A DNA stretch of 64,000 bases from Nitrobacter sp. (GCA_035546855.1 DASZVY010000034.1:20195-84194), one strand, 5' to 3'. Shown: positions 22,568 to 31,260, numbered from the stretch's first letter. Notes: generated by a model from the letters alone, not told the origin. Numbers and translations are program-made.

Positions 22568-22825
22568 ATGCAGGTCCCCGTAACCGAGGCCAAGGGGCAG
22601 TTGACGGAACTGGTCCGGCGCGCCGAGGCGGGAGACGAAATCATCCTGACTCGGCACGGCCATGCCGCCGTGCGGCTGGTGCCGGTCAAGACCGCGCCTG
22701 ACCGGAAATCCCGCCGGGCGCTGCTAGAGGCGGTGCGGGCATCTGCCGCCGCGAAGGCGACGGCTGGACCGAGCGCCGCGCGCAGCCAAGATTTTCTCTA
22801 TGCCGATGACGGCCTGCCCGGATGA
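22568..22825 (+). CDS. vapB: Type II antitoxin, Phd/YefM-type (VapB role)
   Basis: 85 aa. N-terminus MQVPVTEAKGQLTELVRRAEAGDEIILTRHGHAAVRLVPV is the Phd/YefM fold signature. It overlaps the downstream PIN gene by 4 nt (ATGA). Confidence 0.85.
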   Translation: MQVPVTEAKGQLTELVRRAEAGDEIILTRHGHAAVRLVPVKTAPDRKSRRALLEAVRASAAAKATAGPSAARSQDFLYADDGLPG

Positions 22826-23205
22826 TCGCCGTCGATACGTCCGCGCTGATGGCGATTGTCCTGAACGAAACTGAGGCGGATGCCTGCGCTGGGGCGCTTG
22901 AGGCTGAGGATCGCCTGTTGATCTCCGCCGCCACCGTGGCCGAGGCATTGATCGTTGCTGCGCGACGCAACGTTGGCGAAGAGATGGCCAGGTTGGTCGA
23001 TGGGCTTGGCCTTGAGATCGTCAGCGTAACACCCGCATCGGCGCGGCGCGTCGCCGGGGTTTACGCGAAATGGGGGAAGGGCGTTCACCCCGCCTCGCTG
23101 AATTTCGGCGACTGCTTCGCCTACGAAGTGGCGAAGGAGCATGAATGCCGGTTGCTCCATGTGGGCGAAGATTTCACACGGACGGATGTCGAGGGCGTAT
23201 TTTGA
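22822..23205 (+). CDS. vapC: Type II toxin, PIN-domain ribonuclease VapC
   Basis: 127 aa. MIAVDTSALMAIV (first acidic residue) and C-terminal FGDCFAYEVA ... DF match the PIN acidic quartet arrangement. Confidence 0.85.
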   Translation: MIAVDTSALMAIVLNETEADACAGALEAEDRLLISAATVAEALIVAARRNVGEEMARLVDGLGLEIVSVTPASARRVAGVYAKWGKGVHPASLNFGDCFAYEVAKEHECRLLHVGEDFTRTDVEGVF

Positions 23206-23300: not shown

Positions 23301-24257
23301 CTATTTGACGCGAACAACGCGGAAGCCGATGTTGCTTGCTGAGCTGTTGGGTGTATTCGAACTGCGAGCCGCGACTCGATAGCGGTTGCAATAAGATTCG
23401 TGGCAGAGAAACGAGCCGCCGCGCAGAGATCTGTACGGAGTGAGATCGGCAAAAAGCGGGTCCGACGACGCCGTCGCCCTGTGATACTGCGGAGAAAAAT
23501 GGTCCTCGCACCATTCCCAGACATTGCCCGCGACATTATGGAGGCCGTATCCGTTCGGCTCAAACGCGTGCACGGGCGCCGTGCCGAAGTAACCGTCGTC
23601 GATTGTGTTGTGATCGGGAAAGACGCCCTGCCAGATATTGCAACGATGGTGGCCTGCAGGTTGCAGTTCATTGCCCCAGGCATAAATCGCCTGATCTAAT
23701 CCGCCGCGCGCGGCCATTTCCCATTCCGCTTCGGTCGGCAGACGCGTCCCCGACCATTTGCAATAGGCCTGGGCATCGTTCCAGGAGACGTGCACAACGG
23801 GATGATCGAGCCGGTCGAGAACGGTGCTGGATGGTCCTTCGGGCTGCGCCCAGTAGGCATGCGGCACGGCCACCCACCACGGGGTTTCCCGCGCGCGGCC
23901 GGTGAGATCAGCGCGACTGGCTTGTGATAGCAGCCCGTCGAACACAAAACTCCAGCCGTATCGTTCGGCGTCGGTCGTATATCCAGTTGCACGAACGAAG
24001 TCGCCGAACTGAAGGTTGCTCACGGCATAGCAGGCGATGGCGAATGTCGAGACCGTAACCGCACGGATCGGGCCTTCGCCGTCGTCTGGAAAGCGCGTGT
24101 CATCCGAGCCCATCCGGAATGTGCCGCCGATTGGAGCACTCCATTTCCGCGGGATCGGAACAGGATTTGGCGAGATGGCGCGCAACGCGTCGCCGCCCGG
24201 TGCCGACGCCCTGCCGGCATGGCCTTGAGCGCAGCACTGAGGGCGGCCTTCAACCAT
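23301..24257 (-). CDS. Formylglycine-generating enzyme (SUMF1/FGE family)
   Basis: FGE-sulfatase domain motifs HPVVHVSWNDAQAYCKW, RLPTEAEWEMAARGG, NVWEWCED and RGGSFLCHESYC (Cys pair). No signal peptide visible. Confidence 0.85.
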   Translation of the reverse strand: MVEGRPQCCAQGHAGRASAPGGDALRAISPNPVPIPRKWSAPIGGTFRMGSDDTRFPDDGEGPIRAVTVSTFAIACYAVSNLQFGDFVRATGYTTDAERYGWSFVFDGLLSQASRADLTGRARETPWWVAVPHAYWAQPEGPSSTVLDRLDHPVVHVSWNDAQAYCKWSGTRLPTEAEWEMAARGGLDQAIYAWGNELQPAGHHRCNIWQGVFPDHNTIDDGYFGTAPVHAFEPNGYGLHNVAGNVWEWCEDHFSPQYHRATASSDPLFADLTPYRSLRGGSFLCHESYCNRYRVAARSSNTPNSSASNIGFRVVRVK

Positions 24258-24300
24258 CTGAGTTGTCGTACCTTCTCGCCGAGAGCGCTGATGTTGCCGG

Positions 24301-25941
24301 CTATTTTTGCTTCTCTTCTTCCCAGAATGCCGTGCCGCCTTCGGCCTTCATCAATTCCAGAATCTTCTCGCGCGGAATCACCCCGCAACGATCGGCCCAG
24401 CGCCGATAGTGCTCGGCCATGTCCCGAACGCGATCCGGATGCTGCGCGGCGAGATCGTGCATCTCGGTCCGGTCGGTTTCCATGTCGTAGAGCTCCCACG
24501 GACCGGGATACTTTCGCACCAGCTTCCATTTTCCGATCCGAACGGCGGCATTGCCTTCGTGCTCCCAAAACAGCGGCCCGCGTGCGCCGTAGGCTGACGC
24601 AAACGACGGCACGAGGCTTTCGCCTTCGCATGGCAGGATCGGATGACCGTCATATTCCCTGGGGTAGGGCGCGCCGGTGACGTCGAGAATGGTCGCCATG
24701 ACGTCCGGCAACTGGCTTGGATTGTGCCGCAGGCCGCCTCGCTCGGAGATGCCCGCCGGCCAATGCACGATGAACGGCGTGGCGATGCCGCCTTCATGGA
24801 CCCAGTGCTTGTAGAGCCGGAACGGCGTGTTCGACAGGTTCGCCCATGCCGTGCCGTAGCTCTGATAGGTGTCCTCGCCGCCCGGCATCAGCGACGGATC
24901 GTTGCCGAAGCGAACAGGTTTGCCCGCGCGCGTCTTTGCCTTGGCGATCATGAGCTGATCGACCAGTTCCCGCGCGGTGACGCCTTCCGGGATGTCTTCG
25001 GCGCAGGCCCCGTTGTCCGACAGGAAGATGATCAACGTATTGTCCATCTGACCGGTTTCCTCAAGGCTCTTGAGGATGCGCCCGATGCCCTGATCCATGC
25101 GGTCGATCTGCGCGGCATAGACTTCCATGCACCGCAGCGTCCATTCCCGGTGTTGCGCTTCGGTCCACGGCAGCTGGGTGGGATCGCGGTCGGTCAACTG
25201 CCAGTTGGGGTGGATGATCCCGTCGTCGACCAGCCGCTTGAGGCGCTGTTCGCGCAGGCGGTCCCAGCCGGCATCGAAGCGTCCCCGGTATTTTGCGATG
25301 TCCTCATCATGGGCATGCAGCGGCCAATGCGGCGCCGTATAGGCGACGTACTGGAAGAAAGGTGCGCCGGGATGGTTCTTTCTGTGCTGGCGGATATAGG
25401 CCACGGCCTGATCGCTGATCGCATCGGTATAGAAGAACGACGGATCATTCTCGGCTTCATGCTCGATGTTGTCGTTGCCGCGCGTCAGCGTATTCGGGTT
25501 GTAGAAGCTGCCCGCGCCGATGATGGTGCCGTAAAAATGATCGAACCCGCGCTGCAGCGGCCACGCGTCGGTGGGTTCGGTCAGGTTGCTCGCGATATGC
25601 CACTTGCCGCTCAGATATGTCGTGTAGTTCTTTTGCTTGAGGACCTCGGCGATCGTCACGCAGCTCTTGTTCAGATTGCCGGCGTAGCCTTCCGGGCCAT
25701 TGCTGTAGGTCAGGATGCCGATGCCGGTCTGGTGCGGGTGCAGGCCGGTCAGCAGCGAGGCGCGCGACGGGCTGCAGCGCGCGGTGTTGTAGAACTGCGA
25801 GTAGCGCAGGCCGTTGGCCGCGAGCCGATCCAGATTCGGCGTTTCGATCTCGCCGCCGTAGCAGCCGATGTCCGAAAACCCCATGTCGTCGTTCAGGATC
25901 AGCAGGATGTTCGGACTGCTGGCTTTTGCACCGTTAGGCAT
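24301..25941 (-). CDS. Cys-type arylsulfatase (formylglycine-dependent sulfatase)
   Basis: N-terminus PNILLILNDDMGFSD and sulfatase signature CSPSRASLLTG (C56 encoded at 25774..25776). 546 aa. Starts MPNGAKASSPNILL, with no signal peptide. Confidence 0.9.
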   Translation of the reverse strand: MPNGAKASSPNILLILNDDMGFSDIGCYGGEIETPNLDRLAANGLRYSQFYNTARCSPSRASLLTGLHPHQTGIGILTYSNGPEGYAGNLNKSCVTIAEVLKQKNYTTYLSGKWHIASNLTEPTDAWPLQRGFDHFYGTIIGAGSFYNPNTLTRGNDNIEHEAENDPSFFYTDAISDQAVAYIRQHRKNHPGAPFFQYVAYTAPHWPLHAHDEDIAKYRGRFDAGWDRLREQRLKRLVDDGIIHPNWQLTDRDPTQLPWTEAQHREWTLRCMEVYAAQIDRMDQGIGRILKSLEETGQMDNTLIIFLSDNGACAEDIPEGVTARELVDQLMIAKAKTRAGKPVRFGNDPSLMPGGEDTYQSYGTAWANLSNTPFRLYKHWVHEGGIATPFIVHWPAGISERGGLRHNPSQLPDVMATILDVTGAPYPREYDGHPILPCEGESLVPSFASAYGARGPLFWEHEGNAAVRIGKWKLVRKYPGPWELYDMETDRTEMHDLAAQHPDRVRDMAEHYRRWADRCGVIPREKILELMKAEGGTAFWEEEKQK

Positions 25942-25972
25942 GTTTCTGTCCTTGTTTATAACGTGCGTGGTG

Positions 25973-26746
25973 TCATGAGTGACGCGTCAGGCTGATGCTG
26001 AGGCGGAAATAGTTCGGCAGGTAGACCGCGCGCAAAAGCTCCAGCGCGCGCCCGTCTTCGCCAAAGGTGACGCGCTCGATGGAGAGCAGCGGCGCGCCGA
26101 CCTTGACGCCGAGCAGCTTTGCGCTGTCCGCATCGGCGAGCTCCGCGCCGATGGTCTGCTTCGCATCCTTGATGCTGAAGCCGAACTCGTCCTCGAAGAC
26201 GCGATACATGATGATCGAAATGAGGTCGCGCTTCTCCAGTTCGAGCCCGATGTCCGGCGGATAGAAAGCGTGCTCGATGGCGATCGGCGTTTCGTCCGCG
26301 AGGCGAACGCGCTTGAGCTGCCACACCGCTCGCTCCTGCAACTGGGCGCGAACTTGGGGGTCGTGCCGATTGGTCATTCCCCGCTGCAGGATTTTCGCGC
26401 CGGCCTTGTATCCGGCATCGCGAATGGTTTCGGAAAAGCCCATCAGGCGTCCGACCCAGTTTTCCGGCTGGTTCGACCGCAGGAAGGTGCCGCGCCCGCG
26501 GGAGCGGGCGAATATCCCTTCGTTGACGAGTGGCGCGATCGCATTGCGGATCGTGATGCGGCTGACGCCGAAGTGACGGCCGAGCTCGGCTTCCGTCATC
26601 AATCGTCCCGTCTCGTCGATGAGTTCGCCTTCGCGGACTTGCCGGCGGATCGCCTCGCGAATCTGGATATGCAGGGGCGATGATGTTTCCGTACCCGCAT
26701 TGCCGTTGGCGAGCGCCGGTCTTTTTTTGCGCGCATTCACGGGCAT
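25973..26746 (-). CDS. GntR-family regulator with UTRA effector domain (HutC subfamily)
   Basis: wHTH LMTEAELGRHFGVSRITIRNAIAPLVNEGIFARSRGRGTFL, followed by a UTRA-like C-terminal half. Confidence 0.85.
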   Translation of the reverse strand: MPVNARKKRPALANGNAGTETSSPLHIQIREAIRRQVREGELIDETGRLMTEAELGRHFGVSRITIRNAIAPLVNEGIFARSRGRGTFLRSNQPENWVGRLMGFSETIRDAGYKAGAKILQRGMTNRHDPQVRAQLQERAVWQLKRVRLADETPIAIEHAFYPPDIGLELEKRDLISIIMYRVFEDEFGFSIKDAKQTIGAELADADSAKLLGVKVGAPLLSIERVTFGEDGRALELLRAVYLPNYFRLSISLTRHS

Positions 26747-26750
26747 GACG

Positions 26751-27803
26751 TCAGAGGCGCTTTCTTGTTGTCGGGTCGAACAGGTGAATATCTTGTGGGC
26801 GAGCCGTGACGCAGATCGTGTCGCCTTCGCGCGGCACGTCGTTATCGCCGACGCGCATCCGCATGGTGGTTCCGCCGCAGTTGAGATCGAGCACGGCCAT
26901 ATCCCCGAGGTCTTCGACCAGATCGACCCGCGCCTTCAGCCCATCGGGCGCCATCCGCAGTGCGCCAGGTCGTATGCCCGCGATCACTTCGCGTCCGTCG
27001 GGAAATTGGGTTGCCGTCTTGAGACGATGGCCGGCGACAAGGATGTCGCCGTTCGTGTAGTGGGCCGGAACGAGATTCATCGGCGGATTGCCGATGAATC
27101 CCGCAATATCGATGGAATTCGGCTGGGCAAAGACTTCCGCGGGTGTGCCGACCTGCTGGATTTCGCCGGCCATGAAGACGGCCATGCGATCGGCAAGCGT
27201 CATCGCTTCCTCCTGGTCGTGCGTGACGTAGACCGCCGTCACGCCCAGCGATCGTTGCAGCTTTTTCAGTTCGGCCCGGGTTTCGAGCCGGAGCTTGGCG
27301 TCGAGATTGGAGAGCGGCTCGTCGAGCAGAAACAGGCGCGCCCTGCGGACGATCGCGCGCGCAAGCGCGCAGCGCTGCTGCTGGCCTCCCGAAAGCTGGC
27401 CGGGCTTGCGGTTGAGCAGATGCTCGATTTTCACTTTTCGCGCGGCGTCCTGGACGGCCGGACCGATCGACGTCTTGGGCAGCCGGGCCATCTCGAGCGG
27501 AAACGCGATGTTCTCGGCAACGGTCATATGCGGATAGAGCGCGTAGCTCTGAAACACCATGGCAATGTCGCGATCACGGGCGTCTGTGGACGTCACGTCC
27601 TTATCGTCGATGAACACATGGCCCGCGGTCGGCGCATCGAGACCGGCAAGGATTCGCAGCGTCGTGCTCTTGCCGGAACCCGAGGGGCCGAGCAGCGCGA
27701 AGAATTCGCCGGGCTCGATATCGAAATTCACGCCCTTCAGCGCCGCGAATTCGCCGTGCATCTTGACGATATCGCGGAATTTGACCTGGCCACGGCCGAT
27801 CAT
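26751..27803 (-). CDS. ABC transporter ATP-binding protein (CUT1 MalK/UgpC type)
   Basis: ORF 26751..28022. The ATG at 27803 (MIGRGQVKFRDI) overlaps the permease stop (ATGA). Walker A GPSGSGKST, signature LSGGQQQR, Walker B LFLLDEP, and a C-terminal regulatory/TOBE-like domain. Confidence 0.9.
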   Translation of the reverse strand: MIGRGQVKFRDIVKMHGEFAALKGVNFDIEPGEFFALLGPSGSGKSTTLRILAGLDAPTAGHVFIDDKDVTSTDARDRDIAMVFQSYALYPHMTVAENIAFPLEMARLPKTSIGPAVQDAARKVKIEHLLNRKPGQLSGGQQQRCALARAIVRRARLFLLDEPLSNLDAKLRLETRAELKKLQRSLGVTAVYVTHDQEEAMTLADRMAVFMAGEIQQVGTPAEVFAQPNSIDIAGFIGNPPMNLVPAHYTNGDILVAGHRLKTATQFPDGREVIAGIRPGALRMAPDGLKARVDLVEDLGDMAVLDLNCGGTTMRMRVGDNDVPREGDTICVTARPQDIHLFDPTTRKRL

Positions 27804-28639
27804 CGGCGTCCTCCACCCTTGACGGCACCGACCGTCAGTCCTTTGACGATTTGTTTTTGAGCCACAACGCCGAGCACGACCACTGGCAACATGGCAAGGA
27901 CCGATACGGCCGCGAGCTTCGCCCACAGGGTTTGCTCGACGGACACGAAGTTGAACATCGCAACCGTCACCGGGCGCACCGTATTGCCGCTGAGCACGAC
28001 GGCGAACAGAAATTCGTTCCACGCATTAAGAAACACGAACACGATAGTGACGGCAATGCCGCCGCGCACCTGCGGAATGATGATCCGCCACAGCGTGCGC
28101 AGCCGGCTTGCGCCGTCGAGATATGCGGCTTCCTCCATTTCGAACGGAACGTCTTCGAAATAGGACACCAGCAGCCAAATCGCGAAGGGCAGGGAGAATG
28201 ACAGATAGATCAAGATAATGCCCTGATAGGTGTCGATCCAGCCGATGTTTCGCAGCACGAGAAAATAGGGAATGATGATGCCGACAGGCGGAAGCATCTG
28301 CGTCGTCAGCACGTAGAAGCCCGCAAATTTTTTGCCGTGGAAGCGCAGCCGCGCCAGTGCATATGCGGCCGGAATCGCCATCAGCATGGTCACGATGGTC
28401 GTGCCCACCGATATGATCATGCTCGAAACAAGGTTCGGAAGAATCGATCCGGAGCCGAACAGCACGTCCCGATAGGCGCCGAGCGTAGGCGAAAAGATGA
28501 GCTTCGGCGGATAGGCCAGCACATCGGAATCGGTCTTGAACGAGTTCAGGACGCTCCAGATAATCGGAAAGGCCCACGCCAGCAGAAGCACAGATGAAAT
28601 GGCGAGCACGACGGCGGTATGGAGGCGTCTCCCGGTCAT
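27800..28639 (-). CDS. ABC transporter permease (CUT1, UgpE/MalG-like)
   Basis: 279 aa, multi-TM. EAA-type loop EAAYLDGASRLRTLWRIIIP. Confidence 0.85.
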   Translation of the reverse strand: MTGRRLHTAVVLAISSVLLLAWAFPIIWSVLNSFKTDSDVLAYPPKLIFSPTLGAYRDVLFGSGSILPNLVSSMIISVGTTIVTMLMAIPAAYALARLRFHGKKFAGFYVLTTQMLPPVGIIIPYFLVLRNIGWIDTYQGIILIYLSFSLPFAIWLLVSYFEDVPFEMEEAAYLDGASRLRTLWRIIIPQVRGGIAVTIVFVFLNAWNEFLFAVVLSGNTVRPVTVAMFNFVSVEQTLWAKLAAVSVLAMLPVVVLGVVAQKQIVKGLTVGAVKGGGRR

Positions 28640-29571
28640 TTCGCCCTCCGCAGCGCAAACAGCACGCCCGAAATGATGATCGTGACGATGAGGAGGGCAA
28701 CGGCGAGAGCGGCGCCGTAGCCGATGGAGAGCTCGGTAAAGGATTTTCGGTAGGCATAGAGATTGAGAATTTCAGTCGCGGTACCCGGACCACCCGCTGT
28801 GACGGTGAAGATCGCGGCGAATGCCGTGAGAGCCACCATCGTTCGCATGATCACGACCATGACGATGGCCGGGCGAAGCAGCGGCAGAGTGATGCGCCGG
28901 AAGCGCTGCCATGCGGTTGCGCGGTCGAGGCGGGCCGCCTCATAGATGTCCTCGGGCAGCGAGGCCAGTGAAGCAAGCAGCACCATGAAGGCGAAGGGCG
29001 TCCACTGCCAGGTGTGGATAGCGATTACCGAGACCATCGCGAGCGTGGGATCGCCGAGCCAGTTCTGGCTGCCGAGGCCGGCGTTGACGGCAAGGAAGTC
29101 GACGATGCCGAAATCGGGAGCGAGCATGAATGTCCGCCAGATCATGCCGACGACGGCCGGCGAAAGCACCACCGGTAGGATCGCGATCAGCCTGAACCAG
29201 CCCTGGCCGCGTTTCATGTCCATGACCAGAAGAGCCAGCGCCAATCCGATCGCGACCTGGAGCGCAACAGTCGCGCCGGTATAGACCAGACTGATCAGAA
29301 GCGACGACCAGAACCGTTCGTCGGTCAGCAGCACACGATAATTCTCGAATCCGACGAAGCCGTTCATGAACGGCATCGCGAGATTCATCCGGTACGTGCT
29401 GGTCCAGACCAGGAAGATCAACGGAAACGTCGTCGTGGCGAGCAGCGCGAGAAACGCCGGCGCAAGCAGGGCTGCCGCAAACCGGCGTTCACGTTGTGCC
29501 AGCGCGTGGCCGAAATCGGCGAAACCACCATGGCTTCCCGTTTCGGCCGGCGCGATTGCTGACGCAGCCAT
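28636..29571 (-). CDS. ABC transporter permease (CUT1, UgpA/MalF-like)
   Basis: 311 aa, multi-TM. EAA loop EAARLDRATAWQRFRRITLP. 4-nt overlap with the downstream permease. Confidence 0.85.
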   Translation of the reverse strand: MAASAIAPAETGSHGGFADFGHALAQRERRFAAALLAPAFLALLATTTFPLIFLVWTSTYRMNLAMPFMNGFVGFENYRVLLTDERFWSSLLISLVYTGATVALQVAIGLALALLVMDMKRGQGWFRLIAILPVVLSPAVVGMIWRTFMLAPDFGIVDFLAVNAGLGSQNWLGDPTLAMVSVIAIHTWQWTPFAFMVLLASLASLPEDIYEAARLDRATAWQRFRRITLPLLRPAIVMVVIMRTMVALTAFAAIFTVTAGGPGTATEILNLYAYRKSFTELSIGYGAALAVALLIVTIIISGVLFALRRAK

Positions 29572-29574
29572 CGA

Positions 29575-30969
29575 TCAGCCGCGCATCATCGGTTCGATGC
29601 GGCGCTGCGCTTCATCGAGGGCGGCCTTGACGGTCGCCTGACCTGATAGTGCGGACTGGATGGCGGTCGCCATGGTGTCGCCGATTGCCGGCCACTGCGG
29701 CACGCGCGGACGCCAATCGACGTCGGTGTCGTGTTGCAGCGCGTCCATGGTGGCTTCGACGAAATTGGGACCGAAGCCGTTCATCAGCTTGATGTAGTCG
29801 GGATCCTTCCAGATCGACGTGCGGTTGACGCCGGAGCGCTTGGTGGGGCCGGCGAAACGATGGGCTGTGCGGGCCTGGGTTTCAGCGCTCGCAGCCCACT
29901 GGATGAACAGCCAGGTCGCCTTCTTCTTCTTTTCGCTCAATGCCGCGTTGATCGGGAAGCCCCAGTTCCAGATCGAGGTGGTGCGTTTGCCGGACGGTCC
30001 CTTCGGCCAGCGGGCATAGGCTACCTTGCCGATGACTTTCGATTTTTGCGGATTGTTGATCACCGACGCCGACGAATGCGCGTCGATGTAGCTCGCGACC
30101 GTGCCCTGCGAGAATGCATCGGCGATGTCGGGCCAGTTCCAGTTTGCAGCGGCAGTCGGCGCGTACTTTTTCATGAGGTCGACATACCAGGCGAGTGCAG
30201 CTTCGGCTTCCGGACCATTGACCGTCAGCTTGCCGCCCTTCATCCAGTCGCCACCGAATTCGCGGAAGATCGACGGATAGATGTACATGTTCTGGCCGGC
30301 GCCGGCGAGGCCGCGCAGCGCCGCGCCCCAGATACGGTCGTTCGGCGCGTTCAGGGCCGCCGCGTTTGAAACGTACGCTTCGAGCGTGTCCGCAGGCTTC
30401 AGGCCTTTGGCGTCGTAGAGATCCTTGCGATAGACCTGAATGGTGACCTCGCCATCATAGGGCATGCCATAAAGCTTGCCGTTGATGCCGTTGGCGCTCC
30501 GCCACGCCGGAATGATGTCATCGAAATTGAACCACGCGGTATCCGTCAACGATTTGTCGTTCAGATACGCGTCGAGAGGTTCAACCCATTTGTTGGCGGC
30601 ATAGAGCGCGTAATACATCGGATCGGCCGCATGGGTCGCGTAGGTGCCGGTCTTCGAGGTCAGATCGATGACGCTCTTCTGCCGAATCTGGGCGGGCGGA
30701 ATTTTTTCAAACCGGACGTCGATTCCAGTCAGTTCCTTGAACTGGGGCGCCAGCGAAATAAGGTTCTCGAAATAGCTGGCCGGAATGACTGCGACCGTGA
30801 TGGTCTCGCCTTTTGTCTGCTGCCAGTCGACCTTCGCGGACTTGTATGGCGTGAGATCGGCGTCATCGGCCCGGGCTCGGCGAAGAACCGCCGGGGCAAA
30901 CGTTGCCAGGGCGGCTGCTGCCGTTCCTGTCTTGAGAAGCGTTCGTCGTGTCGGCGCAAATGACGTCAT
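29575..30969 (-). CDS. ABC transporter periplasmic solute-binding protein (family 1, carbohydrate type) with Tat-like signal
   Basis: ORF 29575..30984. ATG at 30969 (MTSFAPTRRTLLKTGTAAAALATFAPAVLRRARA). About 464 aa. Confidence 0.85.
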   Translation of the reverse strand: MTSFAPTRRTLLKTGTAAAALATFAPAVLRRARADDADLTPYKSAKVDWQQTKGETITVAVIPASYFENLISLAPQFKELTGIDVRFEKIPPAQIRQKSVIDLTSKTGTYATHAADPMYYALYAANKWVEPLDAYLNDKSLTDTAWFNFDDIIPAWRSANGINGKLYGMPYDGEVTIQVYRKDLYDAKGLKPADTLEAYVSNAAALNAPNDRIWGAALRGLAGAGQNMYIYPSIFREFGGDWMKGGKLTVNGPEAEAALAWYVDLMKKYAPTAAANWNWPDIADAFSQGTVASYIDAHSSASVINNPQKSKVIGKVAYARWPKGPSGKRTTSIWNWGFPINAALSEKKKKATWLFIQWAASAETQARTAHRFAGPTKRSGVNRTSIWKDPDYIKLMNGFGPNFVEATMDALQHDTDVDWRPRVPQWPAIGDTMATAIQSALSGQATVKAALDEAQRRIEPMMRG

Positions 30970-31010: not shown

Positions 31011-31033
31011 ACATTTACGCAAATGTTATAACA
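31011..31033. promoter_or_regulatory. Two overlapping palindromes: ACATTT-ACGC-AAATGT and TGTTATAACA
   Basis: Read directly. They lie in the divergent region between the binding-protein gene (minus) and the amidohydrolase gene (plus). The GT...AC core is typical of GntR-family operators. Confidence 0.45.
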
Positions 31034-31260
31034 AGTCAATCTTGGACCGGGAATTCGAGCCGGCCGGGCGCAGGTGCGGTTCACCCGGCCGCTCTCGTCC
31101 AGGTGGGCGGCCCGTCGTCGTTTCGTTTTTCCTATCGGCGGCTTCGATCAATCGGAGTTAGCGGCTTTTTCCCGCTTCAACTAACGTTTGAGTGCCGCGG
31201 CTCGATCGGCAGTCACCTTTCTGATCGCGGCCGTGGATCGGCCTGCTTGTTACCAAAGAG

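Follow-up and report, generated by a model that had tools for sequence, protein, structure and literature searches.

A cluster of seven genes from Nitrobacter sp. (GCA_035546855.1, DASZVY010000034.1:20195-84194) raises the question of why a carbohydrate-type ATP-binding cassette (ABC) importer should be encoded together with a sulfatase that has no export signal and with the enzyme that matures it. The whole stretch of DNA analysed, called the window here, is 64,000 nt long and positions are counted from its first letter. All seven genes are on the minus strand between 23301 and 30969, in the order binding protein, permease 1, permease 2, ATPase, GntR/UTRA regulator, Cys-type sulfatase and formylglycine-generating enzyme (FGE). 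An earlier note on this DNA had proposed that a sulfated compound is imported intact and then desulfated in the cytoplasm. Our comparisons lend support to this proposal: the array is conserved in two bacterial classes, the binding protein belongs to an orthogroup linked to sulfatases, and the sulfatase occurs with three unrelated types of importer. We consider it likely that the genes form a self-contained, substrate-inducible operon by which a small organic sulfate ester is taken up and then desulfated in the cytoplasm; a sugar or polyol sulfate the size of a monosaccharide is the most probable substrate.

The first part of the question concerns the location of the sulfatase. The reading frames of the sulfatase and of the FGE are already the longest possible, and neither N-terminus has a hydrophobic stretch, unlike that of the binding protein. 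The sulfatase domain (PF00884) covers residues 10-424 with a score of 209 bits against a cut-off of 25. We collected 79 sulfatase orthologues, spanning Proteobacteria, Bacillota, Actinomycetota, Chloroflexota, Poribacteria, Latescibacterota and one Asgard archaeon. All 79 start 3-15 residues ahead of the motif PNI(L/V)LILNDDMG, and in low-GC genomes stop codons are found immediately upstream. Because the frames are maximal and the N-termini are short in all sulfatase orthologues, neither enzyme can carry a signal peptide; the earlier statement that export signals are missing holds, and a revision of the start codons, which might have uncovered one, is impossible for both proteins. Since all orthologues begin just before the catalytic domain, the whole orthologous family is predicted to be cytoplasmic. 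A route through an exported sulfatase is apparently absent from this organism.

The second part of the question is whether importer and sulfatase belong together. A forward scan with the sulfatase against species-representative genomes yielded 80 loci, on which all seven proteins were then searched with tblastn. The full array (binding protein, two permeases, ATPase, sulfatase and usually FGE) is present in 27 of them, from Alphaproteobacteria (Bradyrhizobium, Beijerinckiaceae, Xanthobacter and Tianweitania) and Betaproteobacteria (Ramlibacter, Achromobacter, Bordetella, Variovorax, Pollutimonas and Ideonella). A reverse scan with the binding protein against metagenomes also gave 80 loci, 30 of which have at least 6.2 kb of downstream sequence. 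The sulfatase is present in 27 of these 30. In the remaining three, and in three more loci from their subclade, the gene just before that of the binding protein encodes a different PF00884 hydrolase; among the 30 metagenome loci with adequate context, no binding-protein orthologue without a sulfatase-family neighbour was found. Judged from these counts, the linkage of importer and sulfatase is far beyond chance. It could still be argued that the adjacency has no functional meaning, the importer taking up a neutral sugar or polyol and the sulfatase-FGE pair acting on an unrelated or endogenous substrate, as the nearest solved relatives of the binding protein bind neutral polyols and co-transcription is a presumption. 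However, the synteny persists in different classes even where the regulator has been exchanged, a sulfatase-family hydrolase adjoins the binding-protein orthologue in each of the 30 loci with sufficient context, and the sulfatase is paired with other importers where the ABC system is absent, which makes a fortuitous arrangement very improbable in our judgement.

The swapped parts are informative about the substrate. The betaproteobacterial loci lack the internal GntR gene; in its stead, a LacI-family gene in divergent orientation (for example L017:4286-5353) and a palindrome of LacI type (TGTAATCGATTACA and variants) stand before the binding-protein gene. This palindrome, TGTAA(T/A)CG(A/T)TTACA, is located about 100-200 nt upstream of that gene in loci L016-L043 (for example L017, L019, L024 and L030). 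In Paenibacillus, the gene that comes after an orthologous GntR gene (about 50% identity) and sulfatase gene (70-74%) encodes an MFS carrier of the metabolite:H+ symporter (MHS) family, which is most like a shikimate transporter. In Ornithinibacillus, the orthologous GntR and sulfatase genes are followed by those of an FGE and a TRAP DctPQM system, with a TauE-type exporter upstream, and the TRAP binding protein comes closest to 4P47, the isethionate-binding protein 8T9T and a binder of 2,3-dihydroxypropanesulfonate. Because one cytoplasmic enzyme is paired with ABC, MFS or TRAP importers, its substrate is probably imported, and because TRAP and MHS carriers take small organic anions, a small anion is favoured over an oligosaccharide. 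Polysaccharide lyases and glycoside hydrolases were absent from the operon, its flanks and the orthologous loci examined, and in the same set no glycosidase, lyase, kinase or dehydrogenase was consistently linked. Of the two substrates that had been offered as examples, a sulfated sugar therefore fits, and a sulfated oligosaccharide is less likely than a compound of monomer size, given the lack of a linked glycosidase or lyase and the TRAP and MHS carriers. Since no catabolic enzyme is consistently linked, the desulfated product must be a common metabolite, unless sulfur alone is wanted.

A few neighbours of the orthologous clusters point to the fate of the released sulfate. Five Bradyrhizobium-type loci have the gene of a CLC channel with CBS domains right after the FGE gene (L010:12625-14415 and four others), and the TauE/SafE-type exporter flanking the Ornithinibacillus version is located at L037:8157-8948; the window has neither. 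A CLC or TauE/SafE protein could dispose of sulfate released in the cytoplasm. Other flanks give no substrate clue. Those in Paenibacillus contain Gfo/Idh/MocA or SDR oxidoreductases which are not conserved between loci. Distant sulfatase orthologues in Poribacteria, Latescibacterota and Actinomycetota have varying neighbours (lactonase, PhyH dioxygenases, fucosidase, TPR proteins) and no consistent hint. In Latescibacterota and Poribacteria the leaderless orthologue lies beside PhyH-family Fe/2-oxoglutarate dioxygenases and a seven-bladed lactonase (L050:1718-2467, L053:5102-5842 and L053:12154-13272), the Latescibacterota version also beside a GH29 fucosidase, and an importer of the window's type is absent from these loci.

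The active site of the sulfatase is conserved. The signature CSPSR occupies residues 56-60 (25776-25762), with the formylglycine precursor Cys56 at 25776-25774, the same position as first reported. Its Cys is kept in 79 of the 79 orthologues and its Arg in 78, and D18, D19, C56, R60, K113, H115, H205, D309, N310 and K378 are invariant or nearly so. Among these, D18, D19, K113, H115, H205, D309, N310 and K378 are the equivalents of the metal ligands and the catalytic Lys and His of the Pseudomonas aeruginosa arylsulfatase. The closest solved sulfatases are BT4683 (7ALL, 6.5e-113) and then this P. aeruginosa arylsulfatase, AtsA (1HDH, 3e-90), and both belong to subfamily S1_4, to which the window enzyme may, by these two nearest structures, belong as well. 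BT4683 is a galactose-3-sulfate sulfatase of S1_4 in which the galactose O2 is bound via R72 and E335, residues kept in only 19% and 62% of S1_4 sequences, respectively (bioRxiv 10.1101/2020.11.20.392076). Their equivalents in the window sulfatase, R55 and E315, are kept in 78 and 79 of the 79 orthologues. The sulfatase is 60-75% identical across phyla and belongs to a very conserved, S1_4-like branch without a characterised member, which extends into sponge symbionts.

The placement of AtsA as second-closest relative brings up another reading of the operon. The P. aeruginosa enzyme is classified in SulfAtlas S1_4, a subfamily first known for arylsulfatases (PMC5066984), and the window genes might accordingly be a sulfur-scavenging system of the P. 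aeruginosa ats kind, in which imported aromatic sulfate esters (phenolic sulfates or sulfated phenolic acids) would be split in the cytoplasm solely for their sulfur. The resemblance of the Paenibacillus carrier to a shikimate transporter, the preference of TRAP systems for organic acids and the lack of a linked carbon-catabolic gene would all suit such a function. However, the transporter is of CUT1 type and not a sulfonate/taurine ABC system as in ats, and the regulators are of the substrate-responsive GntR/UTRA or LacI type and not of the LysR type associated with sulfur starvation. Moreover, the sulfatase is nearer to BT4683 than to the Pseudomonas enzyme and retains the sugar-binding Arg and Glu, and the CLC and TauE genes beside some orthologous clusters hint at a surplus of sulfate. 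We regard sulfur scavenging from aryl sulfates as unlikely, although it is the foremost alternative to the uptake of a sugar or polyol sulfate.

The importer has the complete composition of the CUT1 class: SBP_bac_1, two BPD_transp_1 and an ABC_tran protein with OB_MalK and TOBE_2, with NCBIfam matches to UgpA/MalF, GlcU/MalG and UgpC/MalK. The binding protein begins with TRRTLLK (30951-30931), followed by a hydrophobic stretch and ARA, which by eye resembles a twin-arginine translocation (Tat) signal whose RR is kept in the orthologues, although no Tat hidden Markov model matched it. A ribosome-binding site, GGAGG, is found 7 nt upstream of its gene. Among solved structures it is nearest to two polyol-binding proteins, 4RYA and 5IAI (E about 1e-43 to 1e-41). 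Comparison with 401 genomes of the class sets it apart as a discrete orthogroup: orthologues share 67% identity or more with it, the next relatives no more than 32%. Relatives between these two values, sought as a clue to the ligand class, were absent from the 401 genomes, and only two of the genomes carry an orthologue.

The regulator suggests what the inducer might be. Its closest solved structure is NagR (YvoA) of Bacillus subtilis (1e-31), a GntR/HutC repressor that senses N-acetylglucosamine-6-phosphate (GlcNAc-6-P) and glucosamine-6-phosphate (PMC4333415). In NagR the phosphate of GlcNAc-6-P is contacted by T90, R133, R135 and the S165-Y167 helix end, the sugar is contacted by F89, E145, R211, E222 and Y228 and stacks on Y167, and in crystal form 2WV0 a sulfate ion fills the phosphate site (PMC4333415). 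F104, S105, R146, R148 and Y181 of the window regulator correspond to F89, T90, R133, R135 and Y167 of NagR, and the further E, R, E and Y are also conserved. All 14 orthologues, those of Bacillota included, keep the pocket residues F, S/T, R, R, E, Y, R, E and Y. Taken with R55 and E315 of the sulfatase, this pocket would suit a pyranose-like sulfate ester that serves as substrate and inducer alike, a match that is suggestive only.

Upstream of the binding-protein gene, a -35-like TTGACT (31039-31034) is directly followed by the 10-bp palindrome TGTTATAACA (31033-31024), which overlaps a second palindrome, ACATTT-N4-AAATGT (31026-31011). Seven Bradyrhizobium-type loci share the composite TTGAC(T/A)TGTTATAACATTT-N4-5-AAA(T/C/A)GT in front of their binding-protein gene. 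In three alphaproteobacterial loci that are more distant and have a more divergent GntR, the core varies as GT(T/C)AT(A/G)AC (GTCATAAC or GTTATGAC), and the motif is absent from the betaproteobacterial loci of the LacI type. Two copies of GTTATAAC precede the orthologous GntR gene of Paenibacillus locus L033, and variants of it are found in L034 and L037. Because the motif co-varies with the regulator across loci, the operon's own GntR/UTRA protein is favoured as the binding factor, and 31011-31039 is probably its site, at which it would act as an autoregulated repressor over the promoter spacer. A wider regulon was sought through TGTTATAACA, which has only two copies in the 4.3-Mb genome. The second copy (G000:C5:14416-14425; L173:4909-4932) is the core of a perfect 16-bp palindrome, TTATGTTATAACATAA, upstream of znuC-znuB-znuA, where it is probably a Zur box, and it gave no lead to catabolic genes. 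A possible second GntR operator before the sulfatase gene was also rejected, as its sequence is GTTATAAAC and not GTTATAAC and it is unconserved in relatives.

A pocket that matches a phosphosugar sensor, together with an ATPase whose best score is to the UgpC subfamily, might indicate that the hydrolase instead acts on phosphoric or phosphonic esters, as a member of the alkaline-phosphatase superfamily, and that the operon imports a phosphorylated compound, for example a glycerophospho-type ester. Formylglycine enzymes include promiscuous phosphonate monoester hydrolases (PMH), which are among the solved-structure matches. A subclade of the binding protein, moreover, is paired with a PF00884 hydrolase which has Thr in place of the Cys, and a Thr nucleophile is typical of phosphoryl transfer. 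However, the closest characterised relatives of the window enzyme (E 1e-113 and 1e-90) are true sulfatases, the operon retains a dedicated FGE, the NCBIfam PehA and phosphodiesterase models score far under their cut-offs, and the UgpC match is under its own cut-off in a family whose ATPases are generic. A phosphoester substrate is thus quite improbable, more so than an aryl sulfate.

The Thr-type subclade is found in soil metagenomes (L162, L163, L165, L166, L169 and L171, for example L166:7407-8939), and its binding protein is about 70% identical to that of the window. The S1_4-like sulfatase and the FGE are both absent from these loci, and the upstream PF00884 hydrolase is leaderless. It reads A-L-P-T-L-C-A-R-R where sulfatases have C/S-x-P-x-R, with Thr at the formylglycine position. 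The idea that it is a manganese arylsulfatase was rejected, as the Enterococcus enzyme of that kind uses a Cys-derived formylglycine.

The FGE is the only full-scoring one in the genome. It matches the Thermomonospora curvata FGE (6S07) at 2.9e-118, and the human and Streptomyces FGEs at about 1e-100. The CHESYC segment pointed out before is located at residues 285-290 (23405-23388); it contains the catalytic Cys285 and Cys290 and is identical to the aligned segment of the T. curvata enzyme. The only other CxPxR protein of the genome is a leaderless, PMH-like enzyme with CGPSR on another contig (G000:C50:32670-33815; L003), which is a possible second client of this single FGE.

The seven reading frames were found at the coordinates first given (Table 1), so that the description of one co-directional array with short or overlapping junctions holds, and profile searches with Pfam and NCBIfam, on which all domain calls are based, agree with the gene identities that had been assigned from the sequence alone. 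The six junctions measure 3, -4, -4, 4, 31 and 43 nt. Permease 1 starts 3 nt past the stop of the binding-protein gene, and permease 2 overlaps permease 1 by ATGA. The true start of the ATPase is probably ATG 27803, which overlaps the permease 2 stop as ATGA, and not the GTG 28022 at which the longest frame opens, since homology sets in only near that frame's residue 79; the NCBIfam UgpC model (6e-117) is aligned from this residue. No terminator-like site was found on the coding (minus) strand inside the array, and the seven genes are presumably co-transcribed. Downstream, a gene for a PIN-domain (VapC) toxin at 22822-23205 on the plus strand is convergent with the FGE gene, at whose end it delimits the operon; in Bradyrhizobium relatives the CLC channel and further genes occupy its position. 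Upstream of the array there is a divergent cluster of amidohydrolase/hydantoinase type. With these two neighbours as borders, the operon would span from the promoter near 31039 to 23301.

Table 1. Features of the predicted operon in the window, listed in the direction of transcription.
Feature	Position	Strand	Basis
Promoter/operator region (predicted)	31011..31039	-	TTGACT and two palindromes
Solute-binding protein of CUT1-type ABC importer, 464 aa	29575..30969	-	Pfam SBP_bac_1, 1.2e-30
ABC permease 1, MalF/UgpA-like, 311 aa	28636..29571	-	Pfam BPD_transp_1; NCBIfam best matches UgpA, MalF, GlcT
ABC permease 2, MalG/GlcU-like, 279 aa	27800..28639	-	Pfam BPD_transp_1; NCBIfam best matches GlcU, MalG
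ABC ATPase, MalK/UgpC type, 350 aa from ATG 27803	26751..27803	-	Pfam ABC_tran, OB_MalK, TOBE_2
GntR/HutC-subfamily predicted repressor with UTRA effector domain, 257 aa	25973..26746	-	Pfam GntR 1.5e-10, UTRA 5e-28
Leaderless Cys-type (formylglycine) sulfatase, 546 aa	24301..25941	-	Pfam Sulfatase, 209 bits, 1e-61
Leaderless aerobic FGE, 318 aa	23301..24257	-	Pfam FGE-sulfatase (PF03781), 265 bits, 8.5e-79

The module is unevenly distributed. The sulfatase is present in five of 23 genomes of the same genus and in none of 38 sampled genomes of other genera in the order. In a maximum-likelihood tree the window sulfatase nests among Bradyrhizobium sequences, and the GntR-linked sulfatases of Bacillota (L028, L033, L034 and L037; 70-74% identical) are sister to the importer-linked alpha- and betaproteobacterial clade, with short branches. 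The tree suggests that the regulator-sulfatase pair has been transferred between phyla, and the module is probably a patchily distributed accessory trait that is exchanged horizontally.

From the gene content, the missing leaders, the conserved catalytic residues, the synteny and the conserved operator described above, the following course of events can be proposed, in which we infer the direction of transport, the chemical class of the substrate, the inducer and co-transcription. The binding protein, probably exported by the Tat pathway, would capture the compound in the periplasm, and the two permeases and the MalK-type ATPase would bring it in unchanged. In the cytoplasm the FGE, using oxygen, would turn Cys56 of the sulfatase into formylglycine, and the matured sulfatase would split the ester into sulfate and an alcohol. 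The alcohol would pass into general metabolism, because no dedicated catabolic enzyme is linked. The GntR/UTRA protein would repress the promoter at the palindromes (31011-31033) and leave it once the imported ester, or a close derivative of that ester, occupies its anion-plus-sugar pocket.

Several observations weigh against this scheme. TRAP and MHS carriers usually take carboxylates, and sulfated phenolic or hydroxy acids would fit too. Identity of the binding protein to proteins whose ligand is known reaches only about 30%, which makes the assignment to the sugar/polyol class a weak one. The NagR-like residues may be general to the HutC subfamily and not specific for sugar esters, and the TGTTATAACA core resembles a Zur-type site, so that another protein might regulate the operon. 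The gaps of 31 nt before the sulfatase gene and 43 nt before the FGE gene could hide internal promoters. As there are no linked catabolic genes, the product may not serve as a carbon source.

More tentatively, it is possible that the module targets one specific, widespread and so far unrecognised small organosulfate of soil and rhizosphere, for example a hexose or polyol monosulfate, and uses it as a carbon source while surplus sulfate is expelled via CLC or TauE. The similarity of the sulfatase in different phyla, the discreteness of the binding-protein orthogroup and the conservation of the operator could together point to such a single compound. If this is true, the operon would define a new route dedicated to the mineralisation of ester-sulfate in soil. 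A large share of soil sulfur is commonly said to be ester sulfate, and to our knowledge few bacterial routes have been defined for specific small sulfate esters. The operon is a compact and well-delimited candidate in Bradyrhizobium-type, Xanthobacter, Variovorax, Bordetella, Achromobacter and Paenibacillus genomes, with one binding protein, one regulator and one enzyme, each of which can be screened against ligand libraries. Knowing the substrate would reveal a nutrient that is exchanged in soil or rhizosphere and give a function to the conserved S1_4-like sulfatase branch.

How far does this operon resemble known systems? We found no paper on this specific operon. AtsA of P. aeruginosa and the choline sulfatase BetC are cytoplasmic enzymes fed by importers. 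The esters cleaved by AtsA enter via the ABC importer atsRBC of the sulfonate/taurine family, and the ats genes respond to sulfate starvation. The window sulfatase is, like AtsA, a leaderless S1_4-like formylglycine sulfatase, but its importer is of CUT1 type, its linked regulators are GntR/UTRA or LacI proteins, both of sugar type, and its sequence is nearer to BT4683. The ats2 system of Bifidobacterium breve has an MFS-type carrier and an anaerobic radical-SAM maturase (anSME), in contrast to the CUT1 ABC importer and oxygen-dependent FGE of the window, although an MFS carrier does accompany the relatives of the sulfatase in Paenibacillus. With its ats2 glycosulfatase cluster, B. breve UCC2003 grows on GlcNAc-6-sulfate by means of an intracellular sulfatase (Egan et al. 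2016, as cited in PMC7326374). Both clusters are small and combine a regulator, a transporter, an intracellular sulfatase and a maturase, and B. breve imports a sulfated monosaccharide.

With BT4683 the window sulfatase has in common the catalytic residues, the Arg before the nucleophile and the Glu, both of which bind the galactose O2 in BT4683. BT4683 acts on mucin O-glycans from an open cleft, and its native nucleophile is Ser73, which was changed to Cys for expression in Escherichia coli (bioRxiv 10.1101/2020.11.20.392076). The window enzyme, in contrast, is of Cys type, predicted to be cytoplasmic and dependent on an FGE, and the stacking Trp505 of BT4683 has no clearly aligned equivalent in it. 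The regulator keeps both arginines, the stacking Tyr and the sugar-contact residues of NagR; its operator core is TGTTATAACA and not a dre site, and its effector may be a sulfate ester instead of a phosphate ester.

The closest published design is the glycosaminoglycan cluster of Streptobacillus moniliformis, in which the ABC importer Smon0120-0123 takes in sulfated unsaturated chondroitin disaccharides and the sulfatase Smon0126 is predicted to be cytoplasmic (PMC5430744). Both systems combine a binding-protein-dependent sugar-type ABC importer with a sulfatase predicted to be cytoplasmic, and in both the sulfated compound would be taken in unchanged. The Streptobacillus cluster adds polysaccharide lyases, an unsaturated glucuronyl hydrolase and uronate catabolism, whereas the window operon, which has no linked glycan-cleaving or catabolic enzyme, has a dedicated FGE and an internal GntR/UTRA regulator, and the two binding proteins are unrelated at phmmer level. 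The earlier note had described cytoplasmic desulfation as a departure from the usual route. The cytoplasmic location is supported, but the claim of novelty does not stand, since import followed by cytoplasmic desulfation has been published for S. moniliformis (PMC5430744) and B. breve (PMC7326374). The operon differs from the published systems in being minimal, in having its own FGE, and in combining a binding protein without a characterised close relative with a sulfatase from a branch without a characterised member; its value therefore lies in an apparently specific substrate and the ecology of that substrate rather than in the mechanism.

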